A DNA stretch of 12,376 nt, taken from the IMG/VR virus record IMGVR_UViG_2547132271_000006; one strand, written 5' to 3'. Below the pieces are notes generated by a model that was not told the DNA's origin, did not search any database, and worked only from the letters and a program-made list of their open reading frames with translations. The position numbers and the translations under genes are program-made. Positions 715 to 9,422 of this stretch are shown here, piece by piece (positions within the stretch are counted from its first letter, which is position 1; every line of letters begins with the position of its first letter). Source of the stretch: a virus. Taxonomy: Duplodnaviria; Heunggongvirae; Uroviricota; Caudoviricetes.

Positions 715-851
715 AGTAGTCTCCTGAGGTTTTATTAGAATCATTATGTTTGAGCGTAGCGTTGGTAACGCTACCAGGCGCGTGAATGTTACCCCATTTT
801 ATGTATGGGCATGTAGTAAAACTGCAAGTGAGGGTAGCAAGACAATGCTAT

Positions 852-885
852 GGATATAAAAAAACCAACCGTAAAGGTTGGTTTT
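852..885 (-). terminator. Intrinsic terminator downstream of proL (native chromosome), now separated from the tRNA by the inserted element
   Basis: Perfect 10-bp stem AAAACCAACC (861-870) / GGTTGGTTTT (876-885), loop GTAAA; on the minus strand it is followed by a T-rich tail. Confidence 0.6.
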
Positions 886-897
886 CTTGGGATTTTT

Positions 898-917
898 GGC
901 ACGAGAAGATATGAATT
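898..917. repeat. Degenerate direct repeat of the tRNA-Pro 3' end (distal att remnant of the integrative element)
   Basis: GGCACGAGAAGATATGAATT matches tRNA segment 9428-9447 GGCACGAGAGGATTTGAACC at 17/20 positions, same orientation, directly abutting the proL terminator. Confidence 0.55.
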
Positions 918-970
918 AATGATGTAATCTATTGAATTATAATTAATATTAGTTTCACTAGCCTTGTTTT

Positions 971-993
971 TAGTCCCAAACCTAGTCCCAAAA
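971..993. repeat. Two direct copies of TAGTCCCAAA near the distal element end (putative protein-binding / arm-type sites)
   Basis: TAGTCCCAAA at 971-980 and TAGTCCCAAAA at 983-993; the same motif occurs as a 4-copy dyad upstream of int (9246-9305). Confidence 0.45.
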
Positions 994-1093
994 TGAAAAG
1001 TCACAGCGTTTTTAGAGCAAGATAGAAATACCGATACGGGGATATTTAGAATGCCTCTTGGGCTTGCCACTGTCGGGCTTGCGATGGTTTCCA

Positions 1094-1136
1094 GTGGAAA
1101 CTTTTTGGTAAGTGGAAGCCTCGCTGGAAACTTTTT
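1094..1136. repeat. Direct repeat TGGAAACTTTTT x2, each embedded in a short palindrome (TTTCCAGTGGAAA, CTGGAAACTTTTTTCCAG)
   Basis: Read directly at 1094-1105 and 1125-1136. Confidence 0.4.
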
Positions 1137-1172
1137 TCCAGCCCCTCAAAGGCGCATGGTGACTGGTTTCAT

Positions 1173-1300
1173 ATGCTACGCAGTACTCATACTTTCCGTT
1201 TAGTTTTTGCGTACCTGCGCACCATGCTAAAGCCCCGTCATGGCCTTAGTTTGCCTGTTTGTAACCTTGACATTTCTATACATCGAAGTGCGCAAACACA
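1173..1300. repeat. Copy A of an ~130-bp imperfect direct repeat (non-coding)
   Basis: Aligns with 1556-1690 over its length (shared blocks ACGCAGTA, GTTTTGCGTACCTGCG, ACCATGC, AAAGCC, ATTTCTATA, GTGCGCAAA); indels break any common reading frame. Confidence 0.5.
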
Positions 1301-1360
1301 TCAGGATTTCCCCGGCTCACCTTCAGCAATGGCAAGGTTTTATGCGTGTTCCGGGCTTCG

Positions 1361-1407
1361 TCCGTCCATTTTTTTGGACGGAATTTTGGACGAATTTTTT
1401 GGACGGA
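1361..1407. repeat. CCGTCCA-T7-TGGACGG inverted repeat followed by two further direct TTTTGGACG copies
   Basis: Read directly: tccgtccatttttttggacggaattttggacgaattttttggacgg. Confidence 0.4.
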
Positions 1408-1555
1408 TGAAACGGGGCTAAGGCACTGATATAGCTACGTGATGGGCTAAAGAAATCTTCTGGCAGGTGCGCAAAAACCCTGGCATTTCTAAGCATCATA
1501 CTGCGCAAAAAACCACCAATCCGGTATGCCAGTACGCATCAGATAAGGCTTTGAG

Positions 1556-1690
1556 GCGGTACGCAGTATGCATTATGTTCGTTTCGTTTTGCGTACCTGC
1601 GTACCATGCGCAAAGCCGCTGATACCTGATATTCAGCCCTCTGAAACCTTAATATTTCTATATATCAACGTGCGCAAAAACCTTAACAAA
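1556..1690. repeat. Copy B of the ~130-bp imperfect direct repeat (contains tandem TGCGTACC TGCGTACC)
   Basis: See copy A; also carries GTGCGCAAAAACC, a motif recurring at 1289, 1469 and 1502. Confidence 0.5.
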
Positions 1691-1821
1691 ACTTAACATC
1701 CGGTGCGTACCTTTTTGCGCAGTCCGGCTGCTGGTGGATGACTGGTTTTGACTATCTCCAGAAACAACCAAGGCCGGATAAACCAGCCCTGACTACTGTA
1801 TAAAAACTGTATGCCCGTTGT

Positions 1822-1872
1822 TTGCATGGGGTAGTTTTAAAAAAACTTGCCATCTGATTGCATGGGGTAGTT
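1822..1872. repeat. Perfect 15-bp direct repeat TTGCATGGGGTAGTT x2
   Basis: Copies at 1822-1836 and 1858-1872, separated by an A-rich spacer. Confidence 0.45.
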
Positions 1873-1912
1873 CTCGCAAATACCCCCTTATGCCGTTTTC
1901 AGTGCGGGAGCG

Positions 1913-2083
1913 TCATACAGTCCAGGGTTCAGCCCGGGAAGAAGCGGCGCTTTTTGATGCCGCCCGACGGTCTGGCAGCGGGCGCGAACGCTGCTTTGCA
2001 CGAAATAGCTTTTCCGCACGCGCCATTGAACATCCCTTCTTTTCGCTGATTTTAGTGATTTCCATGTAATCGAAAAAACGCAT
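1913..2083 (-). CDS. Hypothetical small basic protein (56 aa, MRFFDYMEITKISEKKGCSMARAEKLFRAKQRSRPLPDRRAASKSAASSRAEPWTV); not in the supplied ORF track (<60 aa)
   Basis: ATG at 2083 preceded by AGGAAGG with a 6-nt spacer (strong RBS); in-frame TGA at 1913-1915; lies immediately downstream of the iteron array. Confidence 0.3.
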   Translation of the reverse strand: MRFFDYMEITKISEKKGCSMARAEKLFRAKQRSRPLPDRRAASKSAASSRAEPWTV

Positions 2084-2207
2084 TGTTTACCTTCCTGTTG
2101 TTCTGGTTGTTTGCCGGATGCCTGATTTTACCAGATACCCGCCAGGCGAGCTTTCCGGCTTTCAAACCTGAAATTCAGGAAAAATTATCTCTATATATAC
2201 AAAAGGG

Positions 2208-2496
2208 TGTTGTCCCTGTTGTCCCGGTTGGCCCAAAAGATGTAACGAACTGATTTTATTGAAATTGATTTTTAATTGTGGGACAACATGCCAGCATTGT
2301 GGGACAACATGCCCTGTTTCTGTGTTGTCCCACAATACTGGCTGGTGAATGTTGTCCCAAAACTCCCTGACGTTGTCCCAAAATTGCCGCATGTTGTCCC
2401 AGAAACACGCTGTGTTGTCCCATAATTACCTGATGATATCTCTAAATAACAGTATGTTACTCAGAAAATCTCTTCTCTGGGACAACCGGGACAACA
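2208..2496. repeat. Iteron array: 12 copies of 9-mer TGTTGTCCC / GGGACAACA (putative replication origin of the element)
   Basis: Direct copies at 2208, 2217, 2226 (degenerate), 2323, 2350, 2371 (CGTTGTCCC), 2392, 2413; inverted copies at 2280, 2301, 2479, 2488; exact 21-bp phasing at 2350/2371/2392/2413 and 2280/2301; located just 3' of the replication gene. Confidence 0.65.
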
Positions 2497-2517
2497 TCTT
2501 TTACGCGCACGTATGAA

Positions 2518-4659
2518 TTATCCGGCTTCTTCTTCCTCCTGTTCAGGTGCGAAAAGCAGGATATATGCACGTTGCCGGGCGTTATTCTGATGTTTCAGAC
2601 GCGGTGTTCTGCCCTGCCAGCCTCTGCCACTGGTGGGTTTCTTAAGCATCCCGGCATCATGCAGTACCTGCGCCACCGCGTCCTTGTTAAAGCCTCTGGC
2701 AACGTGTTCTTTAAACGGTGCCGGAAGCACGTAAAACAACATCGGGTCATCATACCGTTCGCCCTTGTCCCGGTAGCCCATCAGCTCACTAATGGGAAAA
2801 TCTCGCGGATCATAATCCACGGGTGCAAATTTGCTCATGCCCCAGGCGTTAAGAAATGCCACTGCCTGTTCTGCAATCTGCTGGTGTTCTTTGTTCCCGG
2901 TGCCAAACTCTTTCACCCAGGCATTAAAGCTGCGCTGTATCGCATCCCGGCACCCCTGCGCATCCCATCCGGTGATATGGCCTGACAGCACCAGCGCCGC
3001 TTCCATGATGGCGAATCGCTCCCCGACGCGGTGGACCTGCTCGCCGTAGTTGTCCGGGATAAGTCCGCGCCAGCGTTCCCTTGCGGCTTCTGTGGCCTCC
3101 CTCGCTGCCTGCTGGTGGTCTGCCAGCCAGAGCACCCACTCACGCCCTGCGGTGCCATGATGCGCCATACAGGCCGCTCTGAGCGCATCAGCATGAGCTT
3201 TACCGGACGGCATCCCGTGAAATTCCGTGGCCTTCTCCAGTGGCACATTAAGCAGGCGCACCAGTTGCCCCGCTTTGGGCTTCATGCCTGCGGCTGCAAG
3301 AAAGGTTTCTATGTCCATTTCTCCGGTACTGATGGCGACAGTTCGCCAGCGTTTAAGCTCCCGGTTACCGCCTTCCTTTGCGCCCTGTAGTTTCCCCACA
3401 CCGTTAAACAGCGTATAGGCAGACGTTGCCACGGCGCGGGCATCACTGCCCTGACCAACCTCATCCAGTGGCATCAGGCCGTCATTGTGCGCCTGTGCTT
3501 CGTTAGCAATACCCAGCGCAGTACCGTACCAGGTGAGGCGCAGTAAATCCGGGTTACCGTACAGACTGCTGGCGATGTTTGCCGTGGTGGTTTTCCCGGC
3601 GCTGGACTGCTGGAAGAAATGGACGCCGAAGCCATCCGCACCCACCAGCCCGACCAGTGGCGCGGCAAGTGCTGCCGCCACGCCCAGCATCATGGAAGGA
3701 TTACCCGCCACCAGCGCGGCGACGTTCTCCCGCCAGCTCTGCGCCGTTCCTGCACAGGTGTAACCGGAAGCCGTCGCGCTGTGACCGTAAAACAGGACCT
3801 TCCGGCCCGCCTCGCCGATGATTTCCCCGTCCGGCATGATGTATGCGCCGTGCTGCCATCCGGTCAGGCTGGTGATGTGCCAGAGTTCCCCTGTACCACT
3901 GCGCAACAGGTGATCGGCAAGGATGGCGCGAAAGTTATTTTTAGCCGTGACAGAAAGCCCACCAGCACGTAACCGCGACCAGCCTTCACGCTCGCCAGTA
4001 TCACGCATGGGTATCGCTTCGGTGTGTGCTGTACGCGCGCCTGCGGGCTTCCAGCGCAGAACAAGAAACCGCTCGGACTCATCCGCGCCAATGCCCACCA
4101 CCTCAAGCGGATCACACAACCACTGACCGGGGCGGGTAACTTCCCCGGTCTGCTTATCAATCTTTGGCGTTACCCAGTACAGACCGTCAGGGCGGGCCTC
4201 CACACAGGGGGCCAGCTCATCCACCGGCGCAGGTTTGCCCTCTGCCCGTAGTACCTCTTCCACCAGGCTTTCTTCCCCGCGTTCGTGCTGTTCGCGTATC
4301 CGGTTCAGGTAGTCGCGCCAGTCTTCCGGGTGCTGGTCAGGTATCCCCCTGTATAACTTCGCTTCCTGTACGCCCGCCAGCGCCAGCTTTTCAGCAATGG
4401 CATTAATCTGAATGGGCTTAATATCTCCGGCATGATAGAGGCGGGCGTACTTACACCCGTTATCGATAATGCGCAGGTTCGCCAGGTCTGCCAGTTGCTT
4501 TGGCCCCAGCCAGACAGGCGGCGTTTTATCTGCGGCAATTTTTAATCCCCAGTCCTCTTCCCATGTCTTAGCGTGAGCGAAGGCATCAGCCCCGGCAAAG
4601 ATAACCACCTCAACATGTTTATCTTTCGGTTGATGCTTAAGGTTCGGTGCGTTCTTCAT
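2518..4659 (-). CDS. Replication initiation protein, primase/helicase-like P-loop NTPase (P4 alpha-type / DUF927-like), 713 aa
   Basis: Track ORF; Walker A-like FQQSSAGKTTT, Walker B-like MPLDEVGQGS, acidic C-terminal tail; GAGG RBS 7 nt upstream of ATG; start overlaps upstream ORF stop (ATGA). Confidence 0.7.
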   Translation of the reverse strand: MKNAPNLKHQPKDKHVEVVIFAGADAFAHAKTWEEDWGLKIAADKTPPVWLGPKQLADLANLRIIDNGCKYARLYHAGDIKPIQINAIAEKLALAGVQEAKLYRGIPDQHPEDWRDYLNRIREQHERGEESLVEEVLRAEGKPAPVDELAPCVEARPDGLYWVTPKIDKQTGEVTRPGQWLCDPLEVVGIGADESERFLVLRWKPAGARTAHTEAIPMRDTGEREGWSRLRAGGLSVTAKNNFRAILADHLLRSGTGELWHITSLTGWQHGAYIMPDGEIIGEAGRKVLFYGHSATASGYTCAGTAQSWRENVAALVAGNPSMMLGVAAALAAPLVGLVGADGFGVHFFQQSSAGKTTTANIASSLYGNPDLLRLTWYGTALGIANEAQAHNDGLMPLDEVGQGSDARAVATSAYTLFNGVGKLQGAKEGGNRELKRWRTVAISTGEMDIETFLAAAGMKPKAGQLVRLLNVPLEKATEFHGMPSGKAHADALRAACMAHHGTAGREWVLWLADHQQAAREATEAARERWRGLIPDNYGEQVHRVGERFAIMEAALVLSGHITGWDAQGCRDAIQRSFNAWVKEFGTGNKEHQQIAEQAVAFLNAWGMSKFAPVDYDPRDFPISELMGYRDKGERYDDPMLFYVLPAPFKEHVARGFNKDAVAQVLHDAGMLKKPTSGRGWQGRTPRLKHQNNARQRAYILLFAPEQEEEEAG

Positions 4660-4898
4660 TCCACCGCCTCCCTGCGGGTGGCAGCCAGTGCCACGGCATC
4701 GCGGGTAAACTCCCGGTGAAAGCGATCCACCGGATATACGCAGGGGTGAGAGTAGCCATCACGGATATATGTCACGCGGTTGAACTGATTCCCGGTAATC
4801 ACTACCGCACACCCGGATTTGTCGCGCCATTTATCGCCAGGGCGAATTTCGGGTAAAGCCTGCCCGCTGGCAGGAATGCCAGTTATTTTCTTGGCCAT
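4656..4898 (-). CDS. Hypothetical protein, 80 aa, translationally coupled to the primase gene
   Basis: Track ORF; stop TGA overlaps primase ATG; only a weak RBS. Confidence 0.5.
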   Translation of the reverse strand: MAKKITGIPASGQALPEIRPGDKWRDKSGCAVVITGNQFNRVTYIRDGYSHPCVYPVDRFHREFTRDAVALAATRREAVE

Positions 4899-4910
4899 TA
4901 TTTTTTCGCC

Positions 4911-5108
4911 TTATGCTGCTGGTGGTGTAACGGTAAATCCGGCTATTTTTGCCGCTTCCAGAAAACCGTCCAGGTTACTGACAAACTCATTCTTCTGTAG
5001 CGTATAGCCGCCTGTGGCAGTGCCTTTTTCCACGCTAACCAGGACAAGCCCGGTGAAGTCCGGTCGCGCCGGAATGGTAACCGTGAAGGTCAGGGAGTGA
5101 TTACGCAT
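4911..5108 (-). CDS. Hypothetical protein, 65 aa (MRNHSLTFTVTIPARPDFTG...)
   Basis: Internal ATG of track ORF 4911..5222, chosen because it is preceded by GGAGG at 6-nt spacing and overlaps the upstream stop codon by 8 nt. Confidence 0.5.
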   Translation of the reverse strand: MRNHSLTFTVTIPARPDFTGLVLVSVEKGTATGGYTLQKNEFVSNLDGFLEAAKIAGFTVTPPAA

Positions 5109-5643
5109 GGTCTGCCTCCACATACGCGACACCCGCCACATCAAGCGCCTGTTTAAAACGGCAAAGCATTTCACGGCGTTCGCGGTACAGGGCCAGCACG
5201 AAGGGATCGAGTGTGGCTTCAATTTCGGCAGGATAACGACGGACGAAAGGCAGAAGGACGACGCCCTGACAGCGGTGTGGCGTGGTGGATTTCACCTGGT
5301 CAGCCAGCATATTCACCAGGTCATGTAACAGCCCGGTAAGCGGCTGGATCATGTCACGGGGCAATGTATCAGCCACCAGCGCCTTTGCCAGCGTGAGGCA
5401 GTATTCCAGCGTCAGGCTTTCATCAGGCCAGTACTCTGACAGATCGGATGCGGTATTGTCCGGCAGGGTAAGCACCGGATCCGCATGGTAGGCCGCTGTC
5501 AGTGCCTCCAGTGATGTGACAAGGTATTTGCACATCGCCCGGTGTTCCGTGCTGCTGCGGTATTCCATCAGCCCGCACACCAGCGCGGCGCACTCACCCG
5601 CCAGATGAAACAGCTCAACTCCTGCGGGGATCGGCTTATTCAT
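5101..5643 (-). CDS. Hypothetical protein, 180 aa (MNKPIPAGVELFHLAGECAALVCGLMEY...)
   Basis: C-terminal portion of track ORF 5101..6273; ATG at 5643 overlaps the stop of the upstream 65-aa gene; protein-like composition unlike the sequence upstream in that frame. Confidence 0.55.
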   Translation of the reverse strand: MNKPIPAGVELFHLAGECAALVCGLMEYRSSTEHRAMCKYLVTSLEALTAAYHADPVLTLPDNTASDLSEYWPDESLTLEYCLTLAKALVADTLPRDMIQPLTGLLHDLVNMLADQVKSTTPHRCQGVVLLPFVRRYPAEIEATLDPFVLALYRERREMLCRFKQALDVAGVAYVEADHA

Positions 5644-5833
5644 GATGCGCCCCCGTAGCGGGCAGGCGACCCGCAAAGAAGCAGACATTTTCCCGTGCAA
5701 GCTGGCGACGGGCTTCACGTTCGCTGGTGGCGGTAATGTGATGGATTGTTGCGGTAATGGTCGGGCAGTCGCGGCGAACGGCAGCGATAAGCCAGACGAA
5801 TTGCGGGCAGAACGGGGTGAGGGTAGTAGCCAT
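5636..5833 (-). CDS. Hypothetical small Cys/His-containing protein, 65 aa (MATTLTPFCPQFVWLIAAVRRDCPTITATIHHITATSEREARRQLARENVCFFAGRLPATGAHHE)
   Basis: Track ORF; strong RBS AAGGAGG 7 nt upstream of ATG; stop overlaps next gene's start. Confidence 0.6.
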   Translation of the reverse strand: MATTLTPFCPQFVWLIAAVRRDCPTITATIHHITATSEREARRQLARENVCFFAGRLPATGAHHE

Positions 5834-5843
5834 AAGGCAGCCT

Positions 5844-5930
5844 CCTTTGTGTTTAAGGAGTCACCGCCTGAGTTCTCACGCTCATAAGGGGCGGTGACGC
5901 TGGCGGGGGTGAGAAAACCGGACACAAAGG
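5844..5930 (-). promoter_or_regulatory. Structured mRNA leader: nested 9-bp inverted repeats able to sequester the RBS of the 65-aa gene
   Basis: Plus-strand CCTTTGTGT (5844-5852) vs ACACAAAGG (5922-5930); inner GTCACCGCC (5860-5868) vs GGCGGTGAC (5890-5898); the outer arm overlaps the AAGGAGG Shine-Dalgarno. Confidence 0.4.
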
Positions 5931-6004
5931 GAACCGGCCAGCCCGAAGGCTGCCCCACCAGCGCCACCATTGATACGGTCTGTTTTGCGGGTATGCGCTG
6001 GCAC

Positions 6005-6037
6005 GACACAAAAAAAGACGCTTTCGGCGTCTGTGTC
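6005..6037 (-). terminator. Intrinsic terminator inside the same-strand gene cluster, between the alpA-side genes and the replication operon
   Basis: Minus strand reads GACACAGACGCCGAAAGCGTCTTTTTTTGTGTC: 6-bp stem AGACGC/GCGTCT, loop CGAAA, T7 tail. Confidence 0.55.
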
Positions 6038-6039
6038 GC

Positions 6040-6273
6040 CTTTGTGTTAAACGGGTTCTCACGCCCGGCTGTGGATTTTGCCACAACGGGAATACTGTAA
6101 ATCCTGTTCAGGGAGGCAGGCAAGCGGTTTTTATTTTTTCCGGTGTCAGGTTTTGACAGGTTGTTGCCAGCCAGGATAACGAAAATATCGCGCTTGTCTG
6201 CGGTTAAAATACGCTTCTGGCTGGTGGCAGGGTGAGCGATGCCCTGACCGTGAAGGTCATTAATTGATTTCAT
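6040..6273 (-). CDS. ORF of unclear status (MKSINDLHGQGIAHPATSQKRILTADKRDIFVILAGNNLSKPDTG...): plausible coding start, 3' end cannot be called
   Basis: ATG at 6273 with AGGA upstream and E. coli-like codon choice in the first ~70 codons, but the frame stays open through the terminator hairpin and on to 5101; possibly a frameshifted pseudogene or an untranslated leader. Confidence 0.25.
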
Positions 6274-6287
6274 TATTTCAGTTCCTG

Positions 6288-6719
6288 TCAGGCAGCGTTC
6301 TGGTTATCCGGGTACATCATGAGGATGCTTTCGATGGTCTCCGGGGAAAGGCTCCCGTAGCCACCAGTACTGGCGCACTGATTGACCAGTTTAATGACCT
6401 TAAGCACATCCGCACGGCAGGCAAAGCGGTAGCGAAGATGCGCCCCTATGCCATCGGCATTGGCTTCTTCTGAACGCGCCAGGCAGATATCAAGGCGGCG
6501 CTCCAGTTCACTGGCGTAATTGCGGCCTGATGAAAGATGGCAGTGGCGCAGAATATCGTTTTCAGTCCAGCCACCAGCACCAGTGCAAAGCATATAAACG
6601 CGGGCGCGGTGCTTCTTCGGTGTGCGTCTCGCTTGTGTGCGGCTGGTGGTGGGGATAACATCAGACGGGCGAATATCTGTGTTAGCCGCCTGCTGTTCGG
6701 GGCGGTTTTCTTTTTTCAT
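6288..6719 (-). CDS. Hypothetical protein, 143 aa, basic low-complexity N-terminus; translationally coupled to alpA
   Basis: Track ORF; GAGG RBS; ATG overlaps the alpA stop (ATGA). Confidence 0.65.
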   Translation of the reverse strand: MKKENRPEQQAANTDIRPSDVIPTTSRTQARRTPKKHRARVYMLCTGAGGWTENDILRHCHLSSGRNYASELERRLDICLARSEEANADGIGAHLRYRFACRADVLKVIKLVNQCASTGGYGSLSPETIESILMMYPDNQNAA

Positions 6720-6928
6720 TGCGCCACCTCGCCGCGTGATTCAAATACACGATCATTTATCCATTTATTAACTTCGTCTTCAAACCAACCAACACGGCGT
6801 AGGCCAATGCGAAATCCTCGCGGAAATTCGCCAGCGTTAATCATCTCCTGAAATGCGCTATCTGATTTAATGCGTAAAATCATTTTTACTTCTTTTTTGA
6901 GAAGGATCTTTCTTTCTTCTGATGTCAT
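6716..6928 (-). CDS. alpA: AlpA-family small DNA-binding regulator (phage/island transcriptional regulator, excisionase-like), 70 aa
   Basis: Pattern LLKKEVKMILRIKSDSAFQEMINAGEFPRGFRIGLRRVGWFEDEVNKWI fits the AlpA/MerR-like HTH family; the track start at 6946 is a TTG codon, the first ATG is at 6928. Confidence 0.7.
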   Translation of the reverse strand: MTSEERKILLKKEVKMILRIKSDSAFQEMINAGEFPRGFRIGLRRVGWFEDEVNKWINDRVFESRGEVAQ

Positions 6929-6989
6929 TTGGTTAATCTCATTCAATACCGATTAATTCCGGCGGTGTAGGAATACTGGCATGATGAGA

Positions 6990-7055
6990 TAGGGTGAGGG
7001 CAACACTATTTAGGGTGAGGGTAGGTTACCGTGAGGGTCCGGGGTGGTTACCCTC
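6990..7055. repeat. AGGGTGAGGG direct repeats plus GAGGGT...ACCCTC inverted repeat in the intergenic region upstream of alpA (candidate operator)
   Basis: AGGGTGAGGG at 6991-7000 and 7012-7021, GTGAGGG at 7031-7037, inverted ACCCTC at 7050-7055, GGTTACC at 7024-7030 and 7046-7052. Confidence 0.4.
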
Positions 7056-7065
7056 TCGGTAGATG

Positions 7066-7794
7066 TTAAGCCACTTTTGATGGGGTGCGATCGATTGGGC
7101 AAGCGATTTTTTCGATAGCTTTGGCTGTGGATTCAACAAATCCGTAACTGGTTTTAAGCTCTGTAATTATGGCCTGCTGGTTAACTCTGGTGCCATTATT
7201 GTTAGGGTCATACTCTGCCCATTCACAATTCCTTATCCTGATAGCCTGATACAGAGGGTCTCTTTCTACGCCTCCGATAAACTTACCCAAGTGAAGAGGA
7301 TACGATTTTTTTAAAACCTCAATATCTCTTTCTAGTGCGGTAATTTTATTCTTAAGTTCGGATATCACTTGTGATTCTTGATTTGTACGTGATGGCGGCT
7401 GTAATCCCACTTCGTAGGGGGGGGTAATTATAATGGCATTATATTCTATGAACTCATTTTCAACCCAAGGCCAGATGTCCTTTGCCAGAAAGTTAGCATC
7501 AACTATATGTGTGTCGATATTAATATCGTCATTTTTAACTAAGCTTAAGGCATCAACTGGGAGATTCCATGAAGGGTCAGTATATGTGTAGGCTTTCAGT
7601 GGGATAACTTCTTTCAATTTAATAGCTTGACATATAATTTCTTTGAATGTTGAAGCTTTCTCATCGCTAATGTAGCCACTGACAATATTTGGATCAAGAG
7701 TATCGTACTCACCGGATAAGCCTGCCATAACTAAAGCTGCTTGTTCTAATGTCACAATTCTGAGTCGTTTAATATGGAAAGGTAAATCAATCAT
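7066..7794 (-). CDS. Hypothetical cargo protein, 242 aa, markedly AT-rich; no recognisable motif; central predicted coiled-coil segment
   Basis: Track ORF 7066..7797 (track start is GTG; ATG at 7794 has a GAGGTG RBS); GC content clearly below the flanking element genes; sits between int and alpA. Confidence 0.7.
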   Translation of the reverse strand: MIDLPFHIKRLRIVTLEQAALVMAGLSGEYDTLDPNIVSGYISDEKASTFKEIICQAIKLKEVIPLKAYTYTDPSWNLPVDALSLVKNDDINIDTHIVDANFLAKDIWPWVENEFIEYNAIIITPPYEVGLQPPSRTNQESQVISELKNKITALERDIEVLKKSYPLHLGKFIGGVERDPLYQAIRIRNCEWAEYDPNNNGTRVNQQAIITELKTSYGFVESTAKAIEKIACPIDRTPSKVA

Positions 7795-7974
7795 CACGCC
7801 ACCTCACGCCCTCTATCATGGAGGCCGCGCCAACCCGCAGAGGTGTACGGGAATTCGGGAGCTACCCTAGACGCGGCTTATTCTGTTACCGTCGGCTTTC
7901 TTCGGTTTTGCCCATGATAGATCGTTTTCTGAACGCTTGCATTGCAAGACTGTGTGAATAATCAGCTTGTGTTT

Positions 7975-9216
7975 TTATACAGCTCTAATTCCTCTCATTC
8001 CTGTTGCTAGTGTCACTCCCGTGGATGCGGTTTCCACAAATTCCCCCCACCAGCGCATCAACACAATACGCTTTTCAAGATAGTTACTCCGGTTATATGC
8101 CCTGCGAACTTCATTGGTGTCTACATGTGCCAGCGCCGCTTCTATCACATCAGGATCGAAGCCTTCTTCGTTGGCTGCGGTGCTGAATATGGCCCGTAAC
8201 CCGTGGGAAACAAGGACGCCTTGATACCCCATACGCCTTAACGCAGCATTGGCGCTTTGGCTGCTCATAGGTAATGTCGGTTTTTTAAAGCTGGGGAACA
8301 CATATTCACGATGGGCGCTAATAGGCTTCATTGCTTCCAGCACGGCTAATGCCTGCTCACATAAGGGAATGATGTGATCCCGGCGCATCTTCATGCGACC
8401 TGCTGGAATCGTCCAGGTTTTATCCGTCAGGTTGATTTCTTCCCATCGTGTTTCTGCTGCCTCTACAGGTCGCGTGACGGTTAAAAGCTGCCATTCAATG
8501 AGTAATCGCGTTTGCCGCTCTATGCTGGCAATGGATAGTGTCTGCATGAGGTCGGGTAACTGCTCCGGCCTGATGGTTGGCATATGTTTTTTAACTGGGG
8601 TAGGGAAGGCCTTTCTGACATTTGAGGCGGTATTGATCTCTATCAGTCCACTATTGGCGGCAAAATCCATCACTTCATTGATGCGCTGTAGAACGCGTTT
8701 TAGTGTTTCAAGATTGCCCCGCGCTTTAATCGGCTCCAGAACGGTGACGAACTTACGGGCCGTCAGTTCGTTAATGGGAGTATTTCCAATGTCAGGGAAT
8801 ACGTACTTTTCCAGCGAACGCCATATGTCTTTGATGGTATTGGCAGCAAGGTTCTGGCTTTTTTTCATCTCGTACCAGTCAGCGGCGACCTTTTTGAATG
8901 TGTTCCCCCGGCGCAGTTCCTCTGCTTCACGTTTTTGTTGCTGGTGGTGTTGTGGATCAATATCTCGGGCTAAAAGTGATTTAGCTTTCTCTCTACGTTC
9001 TCTGGCATCCGCTAAAGAAAGATCAGGATAATTACCAAGAGTCCATGTAGTACGCTTGCCAGTATCAGGCTTGTAGTAACGAAGCTGCCATGTCTTCACC
9101 CCCGAAGGTTTTACGATCAGAATTAATCCGCCACCATCGGTAAGGGTGGTTTCTTTATCGTGAGCTTTGGCATTTTTTATTTGAGTGGCGGTGAGTGGGG
9201 CGGTTTTGATGGCCAT
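7975..9216 (-). CDS. int: P4-type tyrosine integrase (site-specific recombinase), 413 aa
   Basis: N-terminal arm-binding-type domain (LTDGGGLILIVKPSGVKTWQLRY), C-terminal catalytic region with HGLRAIFST (H-x-x-R) and catalytic Tyr context (RRAYNRSNYLEKR); adjacent to tRNA 3' end. Confidence 0.9.
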   Translation of the reverse strand: MAIKTAPLTATQIKNAKAHDKETTLTDGGGLILIVKPSGVKTWQLRYYKPDTGKRTTWTLGNYPDLSLADARERREKAKSLLARDIDPQHHQQQKREAEELRRGNTFKKVAADWYEMKKSQNLAANTIKDIWRSLEKYVFPDIGNTPINELTARKFVTVLEPIKARGNLETLKRVLQRINEVMDFAANSGLIEINTASNVRKAFPTPVKKHMPTIRPEQLPDLMQTLSIASIERQTRLLIEWQLLTVTRPVEAAETRWEEINLTDKTWTIPAGRMKMRRDHIIPLCEQALAVLEAMKPISAHREYVFPSFKKPTLPMSSQSANAALRRMGYQGVLVSHGLRAIFSTAANEEGFDPDVIEAALAHVDTNEVRRAYNRSNYLEKRIVLMRWWGEFVETASTGVTLATGMRGIRAV

Positions 9217-9230
9217 AGGGCTAGCTCGCT

Positions 9231-9305
9231 TGGGACTTGGTAATGTTTTGGGACTAGGATTTTTAGGACTAGCCGCTATCTAGTCCCAAATTTAGTCCCA
9301 AAAAT
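9231..9305. repeat. Dyad of four TAGTCCCAAA-type sites upstream of int (two inverted, two direct); candidate operator / integrase arm sites
   Basis: TGGGACTA at 9249-9256, TAGGACTA at 9265-9272, TAGTCCCAAA at 9281-9290, TAGTCCCAAAAA at 9294-9305, plus GGGACT at 9232-9237. Confidence 0.5.
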
Positions 9306-9422
9306 TCCGGCTGTAAACGGTTAATACCGATATCTACAGGCATTAAAAAACCCGCAAACTCAGAGAGAATGCGGGTTCTTAAGGGGTTTCCGTATGTATC
9401 CGATACATCCAGAATAATGATT

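Follow-up and report, generated by a model that had tools for sequence, protein, structure and literature searches.

The stretch at positions 2208 to 2496 of the window (the whole viral DNA analyzed, 12,376 nucleotides) is very probably the cis-acting replication origin of an 8.5-kb PICI-like island, bound by the adjacent DUF927 protein Rep and operating by a SaPI-type mechanism. A putative origin had been proposed here in the initial annotation, and this proposal is supported at the level of sequence comparison along four independent lines, namely by an array architecture that is kept while the repeat itself changes, by covariation of the repeat with the Rep tail, by homology of Rep to a known initiator-helicase and by a published, tested origin type. 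The array is best read as a Rep-ori module of the PICI/SaPI type equipped with a DUF927 Rep, for which origin activity, Rep binding, spacer melting and self-loading are proposed from sequence and by analogy. Origins of this kind are already known, and a family-wide pairing of Rep tails with iterons was obtained as a useful by-product.

The 9-mer TGTTGTCCC or its complement occurs in nine exact copies in the window, all of them inside 2208–2496 (exact-match count), compared to an expected count of 0.08 derived from 200 shuffles, none of which reached nine. Moreover, the 8-mer core GTTGTCCC is present in 11 exact copies, all in the same interval, and a one-mismatch copy of this core, GTTGGCCC, is located at 2227. 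The twelve copies in 290 bp described initially are thus correct for the core when the degenerate copy is included. Neither the exact 8-mer nor the 9-mer was found elsewhere in the 12.4-kb window. In 88 related enterobacterial loci, estimated at about 1.1 Mb, the 9-mer was counted only 11 times, with nine copies in the homologous array of locus L001 and one in that of L086. Four plus-strand copies start at 2350, 2371, 2392 and 2413 and hence show the exact 21-bp steps reported before; the copy at 2371 reads CGTTGTCCC. TRF returned a 21-bp unit repeated 4.1 times at 2349–2435 and a 9-bp unit repeated three times at 2208–2234. Regarding the 21-bp tandem duplication formerly assigned to 2277–2318, the offset of 21 bp was reproduced, whereas the exact unit comprises 18 nt (2275–2292 and 2296–2313).

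The neighboring 713-aa ORF is encoded on the minus strand (4659–2518) and the repeats lie past its stop codon, so that the array is positioned 3' of the replication gene, immediately adjacent to it as had been stated, with the nearest repeat (2496) 22 nt beyond the stop codon. Read in the direction of rep, with > denoting TGGGACAAC, the layout is <<, AT spacer, >>>>>, <<, AT spacer, >>>, the last copy being degenerate. The array consequently consists of two inverted-repeat modules of the form << AT >> in tandem, each built around an AT-rich spacer. Of the phased array envisaged in the initial annotation, the 21-bp phasing is retained, while a simple direct array is replaced by this two-module organization. 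The following features were distinguished:

2208–2496, both orientations: whole putative ori array, twelve copies of TGTTGTCCC/GGGACAACA arranged as two modules (repeat counts, TRF, homologous arrays)
2479–2496, minus strand: rep-proximal tandem pair with 9-bp spacing (GGGACAACC, GGGACAACA), 22 nt past the rep stop (22–31 nt in relatives)
2422–2478, no strand: rep-proximal AT-rich spacer, GC about 0.29, candidate melting region, containing TAACAGTATGTTAC and a weak minus-strand promoter-like match
2323–2421, plus strand: five copies in opposite orientation, starting at 2323, 2350, 2371, 2392 and 2413 (spacing 27, 21, 21 and 21 bp)
2280–2309, minus strand: two flipped copies 21 bp apart, within the exact 18-nt duplication
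2235–2279, no strand: rep-distal AT-rich spacer, minimum GC of 0.20 in a 40-bp window, with AATCAGTTCGTTAC on the minus strand
2208–2234, plus strand: rep-distal tandem triplet with 9-bp spacing, third copy degenerate (GGTTGGCCC); all three copies are intact in L001

Coding potential of four ORFs overlapping the array was rejected, as they yielded no family match and related arrays contain no ORF of consistent strand or length. No DnaA box with up to one mismatch was detected in 2100–2520.

The gene next to the array and the part of its product relevant to repeat recognition are located as follows:

2518–4659, minus strand: rep, encoding a DUF927 initiator-helicase of 713 aa with homology to SaPIbov1 Rep and SCCmec Cch
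2521–2739, minus strand: Rep residues ~641–713, predicted winged-helix tail, covarying with iteron type

Within Rep, Pfam identified only the DUF927 domain (E=2.6e-48), and PHROGs matches belong to 'DNA primase' and 'primase/helicase' families. A search of PDB sequences ranked the replication initiator-helicase of SaPIbov1 first (8tch, E=1.9e-14) and the SCCmec helicase Cch second. The full-length AlphaFold model of Rep is weak (mean pLDDT 64); Foldseek searches with this model returned SaPIbov1 Rep and Cch at E values of about 1e-11 to 1e-12. Rep is, by sequence and by predicted structure, a homologue of the SaPIbov1 Rep initiator-helicase. For the last 152 residues, a separate AlphaFold model reached a mean pLDDT of 57.6, with about 77 over residues 641–701, and the modelled C-terminal part most resembles the C-terminal winged helix of SaPIbov1 Rep. 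Foldseek with the C-terminal model gave nothing significant, PDB sequences yielded no match to a profile of the C-terminal alignment, and Pfam holds no family for the N-terminal 150 or the C-terminal 130 aa of Rep. The tail is therefore assigned, with moderate confidence, to a predicted winged helix of the SaPI Rep type.

No primase domain was detectable in Rep, and the TOPRIM domain that is annotated in a longer relative from E. coli (~920-aa forms) is missing from the 713-aa protein. In its place stands an N-terminal domain modelled as an alternating beta-alpha fold, and residues 1–130 (window 4270–4659) share 48% identity with the N-terminal part of the Pri-Rep of EcCICFT073, which is unrelated over the rest of its length. 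A homologue is also present in a Klebsiella 'phage' record.

Homology to the E. coli core ends at 827 on the narP side and resumes at 9379, which delimits an insert of approximately 8.55 kb (828–9378). The insertion point lies 44 nt past tRNA-Pro and not within the tRNA; the island is placed between tRNA-Pro/yejM and narP. Besides rep, the island encodes:

9216–7975, minus strand: int
between int and alpA in the listed gene order, minus strand: 243-aa ORF
6946–6716, minus strand: alpA (PF05930, 34.6 bits)
listed between alpA and the Ash-family ORF, minus strand: 143-aa ORF
6273–5101, minus strand: 390-aa Ash-family ORF containing C4 antisense RNA, isrK and c4-a1b1 matches
4656–4898, minus strand: DUF4222 gene, overlapping the rep start by 4 nt

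In agreement with a Gram-negative PICI, int, alpA and rep are co-oriented on the minus strand, the insert is small and a phage structural or lysis gene set is absent. Rfam models matched the minus strand at 5887–6100 (C4 antisense RNA, 82 bits; isrK, 68 bits; c4-a1b1, 46.4 bits, just below the cutoff of 46.7). Since a P4/P1-type RNA immunity module is embedded in it, the Ash-family ORF may partly or wholly represent an RNA locus. Furthermore, an int-alpA RNA (RF02996; 43 bits, cutoff 35.8) was located just downstream of int at 7810–7877 on the minus strand. The other PICIs examined likewise have a DUF4222 gene on the immediate upstream side of rep, abutting it in several and separated from it by one small ORF in two; in most of L081, L082, L083, L086–L088 and the window the overlap with the rep start is 4 nt. 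The partner Reps span unrelated families (DUF927, 'DNA primase family' and RepA helicase), and DUF4222 may represent a conserved replication accessory.

In order to compare arrays across the family, 80 loci from Enterobacterales genomes and 80 from viral contigs, all encoding Rep relatives, were compiled; 79 of the genome loci and all viral-contig loci were scored by how often a single 7-mer recurs within the 600 bp that follow rep. At least nine copies of one 7-mer were found in 40 of 79 genome loci and 39 of 80 viral-contig loci, compared to two of 1521 control windows of 600 bp from the same loci. Another 33 loci in each set contain four to eight copies, often representing the rep-proximal module alone. 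No 7-mer with more than three copies followed rep in six of 79 genome loci and eight of 80 viral-contig loci; when seven loci without an array at this position were scanned over their whole length, six were found to carry a relocated array, L008 being the exception.

Related arrays begin 22–31 nt after the rep stop codon, span approximately 250–320 bp and keep the order of orientations as well as the 9-, 11- and 21-bp spacings. Typically, tandem copies at 9-bp spacing are followed by an AT-rich spacer and by flipped copies at 11 or 21 bp, usually in two such modules (~150 loci), and the first spacer has a mean GC of 0.24 vs. 0.49 for the loci. The repeat word, in contrast to this architecture, varies by clade, with about 20 types all in one register, including TGGGACAAC, TGGGATAAG, TGAACCAAC, TGAGACAAC, TGAACCGAC and TAACCCAC as well as TAACCCGT, TGACACACT, TGAGGCAAC and TGGAACAAC. 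An alignment of the window with three relatives showed invariant columns corresponding to the iteron cores, the spacers being mostly variable except for short conserved motifs.

Many relatives (L014–L016, L018, L098–L111 and others) show just four to six copies, corresponding to the rep-proximal half of the array, so that one << AT >>> module may be the minimal unit. In the subgroup of L112 (L112, L113, L122, L116, L151 and L154), the Reps feature a tail containing KGYQTLTPRLRH, an SSB gene overlaps the rep stop codon and no module follows rep; instead, a module of three tandem copies, an AT spacer and three flipped copies of TGGAACAAC is located directly 3' of int, 6 kb away. The example from L112 is:

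L112 1219–1341: relocated iteron module

Short motifs within and beside the spacers were also recorded. The two spacers of the window hold an inverted pair of 14-mers, AATCAGTTCGTTAC at 2242–2255 (minus strand) and TAACAGTATGTTAC at 2447–2460 (plus strand), and the spacer of the relocated L112 array contains a match to this 14-mer at 1262–1275. Most other clades, unlike the window, keep TTGATTTATAAGG in the spacer. A candidate motif, WAWCAGTNNGTTAC, was defined post hoc and recurs in L112-type spacers; as a general spacer motif it was dropped because most other clades carry TTGATTTATAAGG. Such spacer motifs could be sites for host factors. Right after the last repeat, at about 2185–2207, the element TTTTGTATAT(A/C)TA(G/T) was observed, also in L001, L002, L086 and L088. 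Its conservation among the closest relatives extends to L088, which has a different iteron type, whereas more distant loci lack it.

Iteron type goes together with the sequence of the C-terminal ~50 residues of Rep. Identity between Reps of the same iteron type exceeds that between Reps of different types by about 0.1 nearly everywhere along the protein, but by 0.28–0.38 over residues 661–710, with the peak of 0.38 at residues 671–700. The partial Mantel correlation between iteron and tail, controlled for the helicase core, amounted to 0.74, a value reached by none of 2000 permutations, and the reverse partial correlation was negative. L041 and L035 illustrate this pattern, as their helicase cores are 97% identical while both their tails and their iterons differ. 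Furthermore, the pairing was predictive: P0007, whose Rep is 78% identical to that of the window and ends in a RLKKKALRKMGGKQH-type tail, carries TAACCCGT repeats as this tail predicts. The repeats of P0008 (TGAACACACT) are close to the TGACACACT repeats of L077, and the tails of the two Reps are alike. Taken together, the partial Mantel correlation and the tail-swapped relatives with matching iterons point in silico to cognate Rep-iteron specificity. In view of tail covariation and relocation, the array behaves as a movable cis-module coupled to the Rep tail and not as a feature of the 3' end of rep itself.

A simple residue-to-base code, in which QGR/QIR would specify the last base and RQR/RPW a C/T position, did not hold: L086, L114 and L118, together with loci related to them, contradict it. 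Reps of L114 and its relatives that carry a QIR tail use TGGGACAAC, and the array of P0002 is of a mixed type (TGGGAYAAS), which likewise goes against the finer code.

The covariation also bears on the assumption that the repeats bind another protein, e.g., a transcription regulator, an integrase at arm sites, a partition protein at a centromere or a terminase at its recognition site, and are unrelated to replication. Arrays of such size do occur at centromeres, cosB and att arms, the rep-proximal spacer contains a weak promoter-like match, and the array of the L112 subgroup adjoins int. However, the repeat type follows the Rep tail even after controlling for the rest of Rep, the window encodes neither ParA, ParB or ParR nor TerS, and the array is located more than 1.3 kb from both island junctions. 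Moreover, the array in L112 is next to the 3' end of int and not on the att side, and promoter-like matches were judged not to exceed chance (two, compared to a shuffled expectation of 0.7 ± 0.9). Binding by a protein other than Rep with no role in replication is accordingly regarded as highly improbable.

The replication origins of SaPIs provide the closest published counterpart of the array. SaPI Reps bind 6–12 iterons directly downstream of rep via a C-terminal winged helix, and the origin features an AT-rich center with opposed iterons on either side (PMC9371898). Gram-negative PICIs share this organization, and a rep-ori segment of EcCICFT073 drives plasmid maintenance (PMC6092414); autonomous replication of rep-ori is thus known for SaPIs and for EcCICFT073. 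The array of the window likewise lies 3' of rep, at a distance of 22 nt, with short iterons in both orientations. It comprises twelve copies and two AT-rich spacers (GC ~0.29), each flanked by opposed copies as described for SaPIs (PMC9371898), next to the gene of a SaPI Rep homologue, a helicase-initiator with a predicted C-terminal winged helix. The co-oriented int-alpA-rep order is a further resemblance to Gram-negative PICIs (PMC6092414), and the window shares with EcCICFT073 a DUF4222 gene overlapping the rep start as well as outer 9-bp tandem pairs, inverted around AT-rich DNA at the origin. Differences were also noted. SaPI iterons are 5–6-mers around one spacer, whereas the window has a 9-mer and two spacer modules; the Pri-Reps of EcCICFT073, 042 and RM13514 have an unrelated helicase body, only the N-terminal ~130 aa (48% identity) being common; and, in contrast to PICIs, late, capsid or cos functions are missing downstream in the window.

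According to the published SaPI model, Rep is a self-loading hexameric helicase, of which probably two hexamers load, one per side (PMC9371898). The same mechanism is proposed here because the model matches the array in each of its features and Rep is a homologue. Rep would act as a hexameric DUF927 helicase of the SaPIbov1 Rep / SCCmec Cch type, whose C-terminal winged-helix tail is predicted to read the 9-mer TGGGACAAC. The sites available to it would be the outer tandem copies, with a spacing of 9 bp, and those of the inner block, with a spacing of 21 bp (two helical turns). Since the copies are opposed across each AT-rich spacer, Rep oligomers on the flanking repeats would face each other across easily melted DNA; they may then open an AT-rich spacer, with two candidate melting sites being available, and load themselves as the replicative helicase.

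In satellite phage P4, alpha is a helicase initiator with a C-terminal origin-binding domain. The likeness to its crr element suggested in the initial annotation is valid for the position 3' of the replication gene, but P4 is not the closest relative. The crr lies directly 3' of alpha, is ~300 bp long and contains ten octamers in both orientations including 9-bp tandem pairs (P4 record), and the window also possesses the P4/P1-type C4/isrK immunity RNA and an AlpA/Vis-like gene. In contrast, the P4 octamer is TGTTCACC and thus differs from TGTTGTCCC, as had already been noted; P4 has a bipartite ori and crr 4.5 kb apart, the window a single cluster; and the P4 genes sid, delta, psu and epsilon are not present in the window. 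An alpha-type primase-helicase and TGTTCACC in two clusters were likewise not found. Homology of Rep to P4 alpha was rejected, as tblastn of Rep against a phage collection gave no P4 match at E<=1e-5, and likeness of the C-termini was rejected on the basis of an hhalign comparison of the C-terminal alignments (probability 0.1).

The P4 case nevertheless illustrates how an array could bind Rep while initiation takes place elsewhere, the repeats then serving as a cis enhancer or in copy control (handcuffing, autoregulation). The P4 crr has the same position and a similar size and copy number, and the true origin of P4 is a separate site at a distance of 4.5 kb. Moreover, covariation indicates pairing with Rep and not initiation as such, and one of the two modules could be auxiliary. 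On the other hand, a second cluster was not detected: seven one-mismatch matches lie outside the array, compared to 9.2 expected by chance in the whole window. Five one-mismatch matches inside rep were considered as a candidate second cluster and dismissed as chance, since across 66 loci near-iterons of the own type are not commoner in rep than those of other types (1.20 vs. 1.24). Furthermore, many relatives have one module as their sole array, and the equivalent region is the functional origin in SaPIs and EcCICFT073. A crr-like role is therefore considered quite unlikely, and the origin assignment is preferred.

Iteron plasmids of the RepA/Pi type (pPS10, R6K, F, pSC101) resemble the window in having initiator-specific repeats beside an AT-rich unwinding region and in the covariation of initiator and iterons between replicons. 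They differ in their 17–22-bp direct repeats, compared to 9-bp sites in both orientations, and in a Rep_3 WH1-WH2 initiator, whereas the DUF927 initiator of the window would be the helicase itself. A plasmid origin of the Rep_3/RepA class is thus not indicated, the array combining a DUF927 helicase gene with 9-bp bidirectional sites and containing no DnaA box at up to one mismatch.

The pairing of tails and iterons allows a wider, tentative interpretation. Possibly, though doubtfully, the DUF927 Reps of Enterobacterales satellites form about 20 orthogonal tail/9-mer pairs that are swapped as a tail-plus-origin cassette among helicases otherwise nearly identical, with a movable origin, diversification being driven by conflict such as satellite incompatibility or escape from helper-phage factors. 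Origin repeats are known targets in such conflicts, as Odn of phage ICP1 targets those of PLE. If this holds, the window would be a well-defined example of a system whose protein-DNA recognition code could be read from sequence. Apart from this interpretation, a functional label is provided for 290 bp of non-coding DNA and a protein with a 'domain of unknown function', and the SaPI Rep-ori design of Gram-positives is shown to extend to a widespread Enterobacterales family with true initiator homology. Moreover, tail/iteron pairs predict which satellites could cross-replicate or exclude each other, and could supply orthogonal compact replicons. Current understanding is not overturned by these considerations.

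The state of the island was evaluated with respect to the activity of the present copy. The nearest copy is L001 from Escherichia sp. MOD1-EC7003. No late genes, terS or recognizable cos were found downstream of the array; a P2/P4 cos match was absent, and three two-mismatch matches to lambda cosN were at chance level. The published att core of yejM-luxR PICIs is absent in the window and no direct repeat of at least 9 nt was found at the island junctions; terminator-like hairpins were observed at both junctions (9345–9378 and 855–888). Lacking late genes, terS, cos and att repeats, the island may be a decayed, non-mobile copy even with an intact origin.

Going one step further, the array itself might be the relic of a former origin and no longer functional. 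Between the array and narP there is no ORF above 93 aa and no phage-like gene, whereas in the relative L096 the origin is followed by a ClpP-capsid fusion gene; one repeat is degenerate, att repeats were not found, and the element is absent from the 5426 complete E. coli genomes searched. However, rep is an intact 713-codon ORF whose product is 97% identical to L001 Rep, all but one of the 12 repeats are perfect, in register with those of L001, L086 and L002, and int, alpA and the immunity RNA are intact according to profile scores. Loss of function is hence assigned only a very small probability, and it would concern the activity of this copy, leaving the identity of the array as a Rep-ori module unchanged.

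Several E. coli and Shigella PICIs are listed at the same yejM-luxR site in Table S1 of Fillol-Salom et al.; their Rep belongs to another family than that of the window. The 1.3-kb region from the array to narP (828–2200) contains no ORF above 93 aa and no Rfam or phage match, phage similarity being absent from 760–2210, and it might represent a packaging or late-control region. It is rich in short repeats. Three modules of ~40 nt (1260–1299, 1473–1512 and 1642–1681) carry a promoter-like TTTGCGCA...TAGAAAT on the minus strand, with TATAGAAAT in two of the three. Further repeats comprise TTTTGCGTACCTGCGYACCATGC in two copies (1205 and 1587), TGCATGGGGTAGTT in two copies (1812–1872) and CGTCCAAAA in three copies near 1380–1420.
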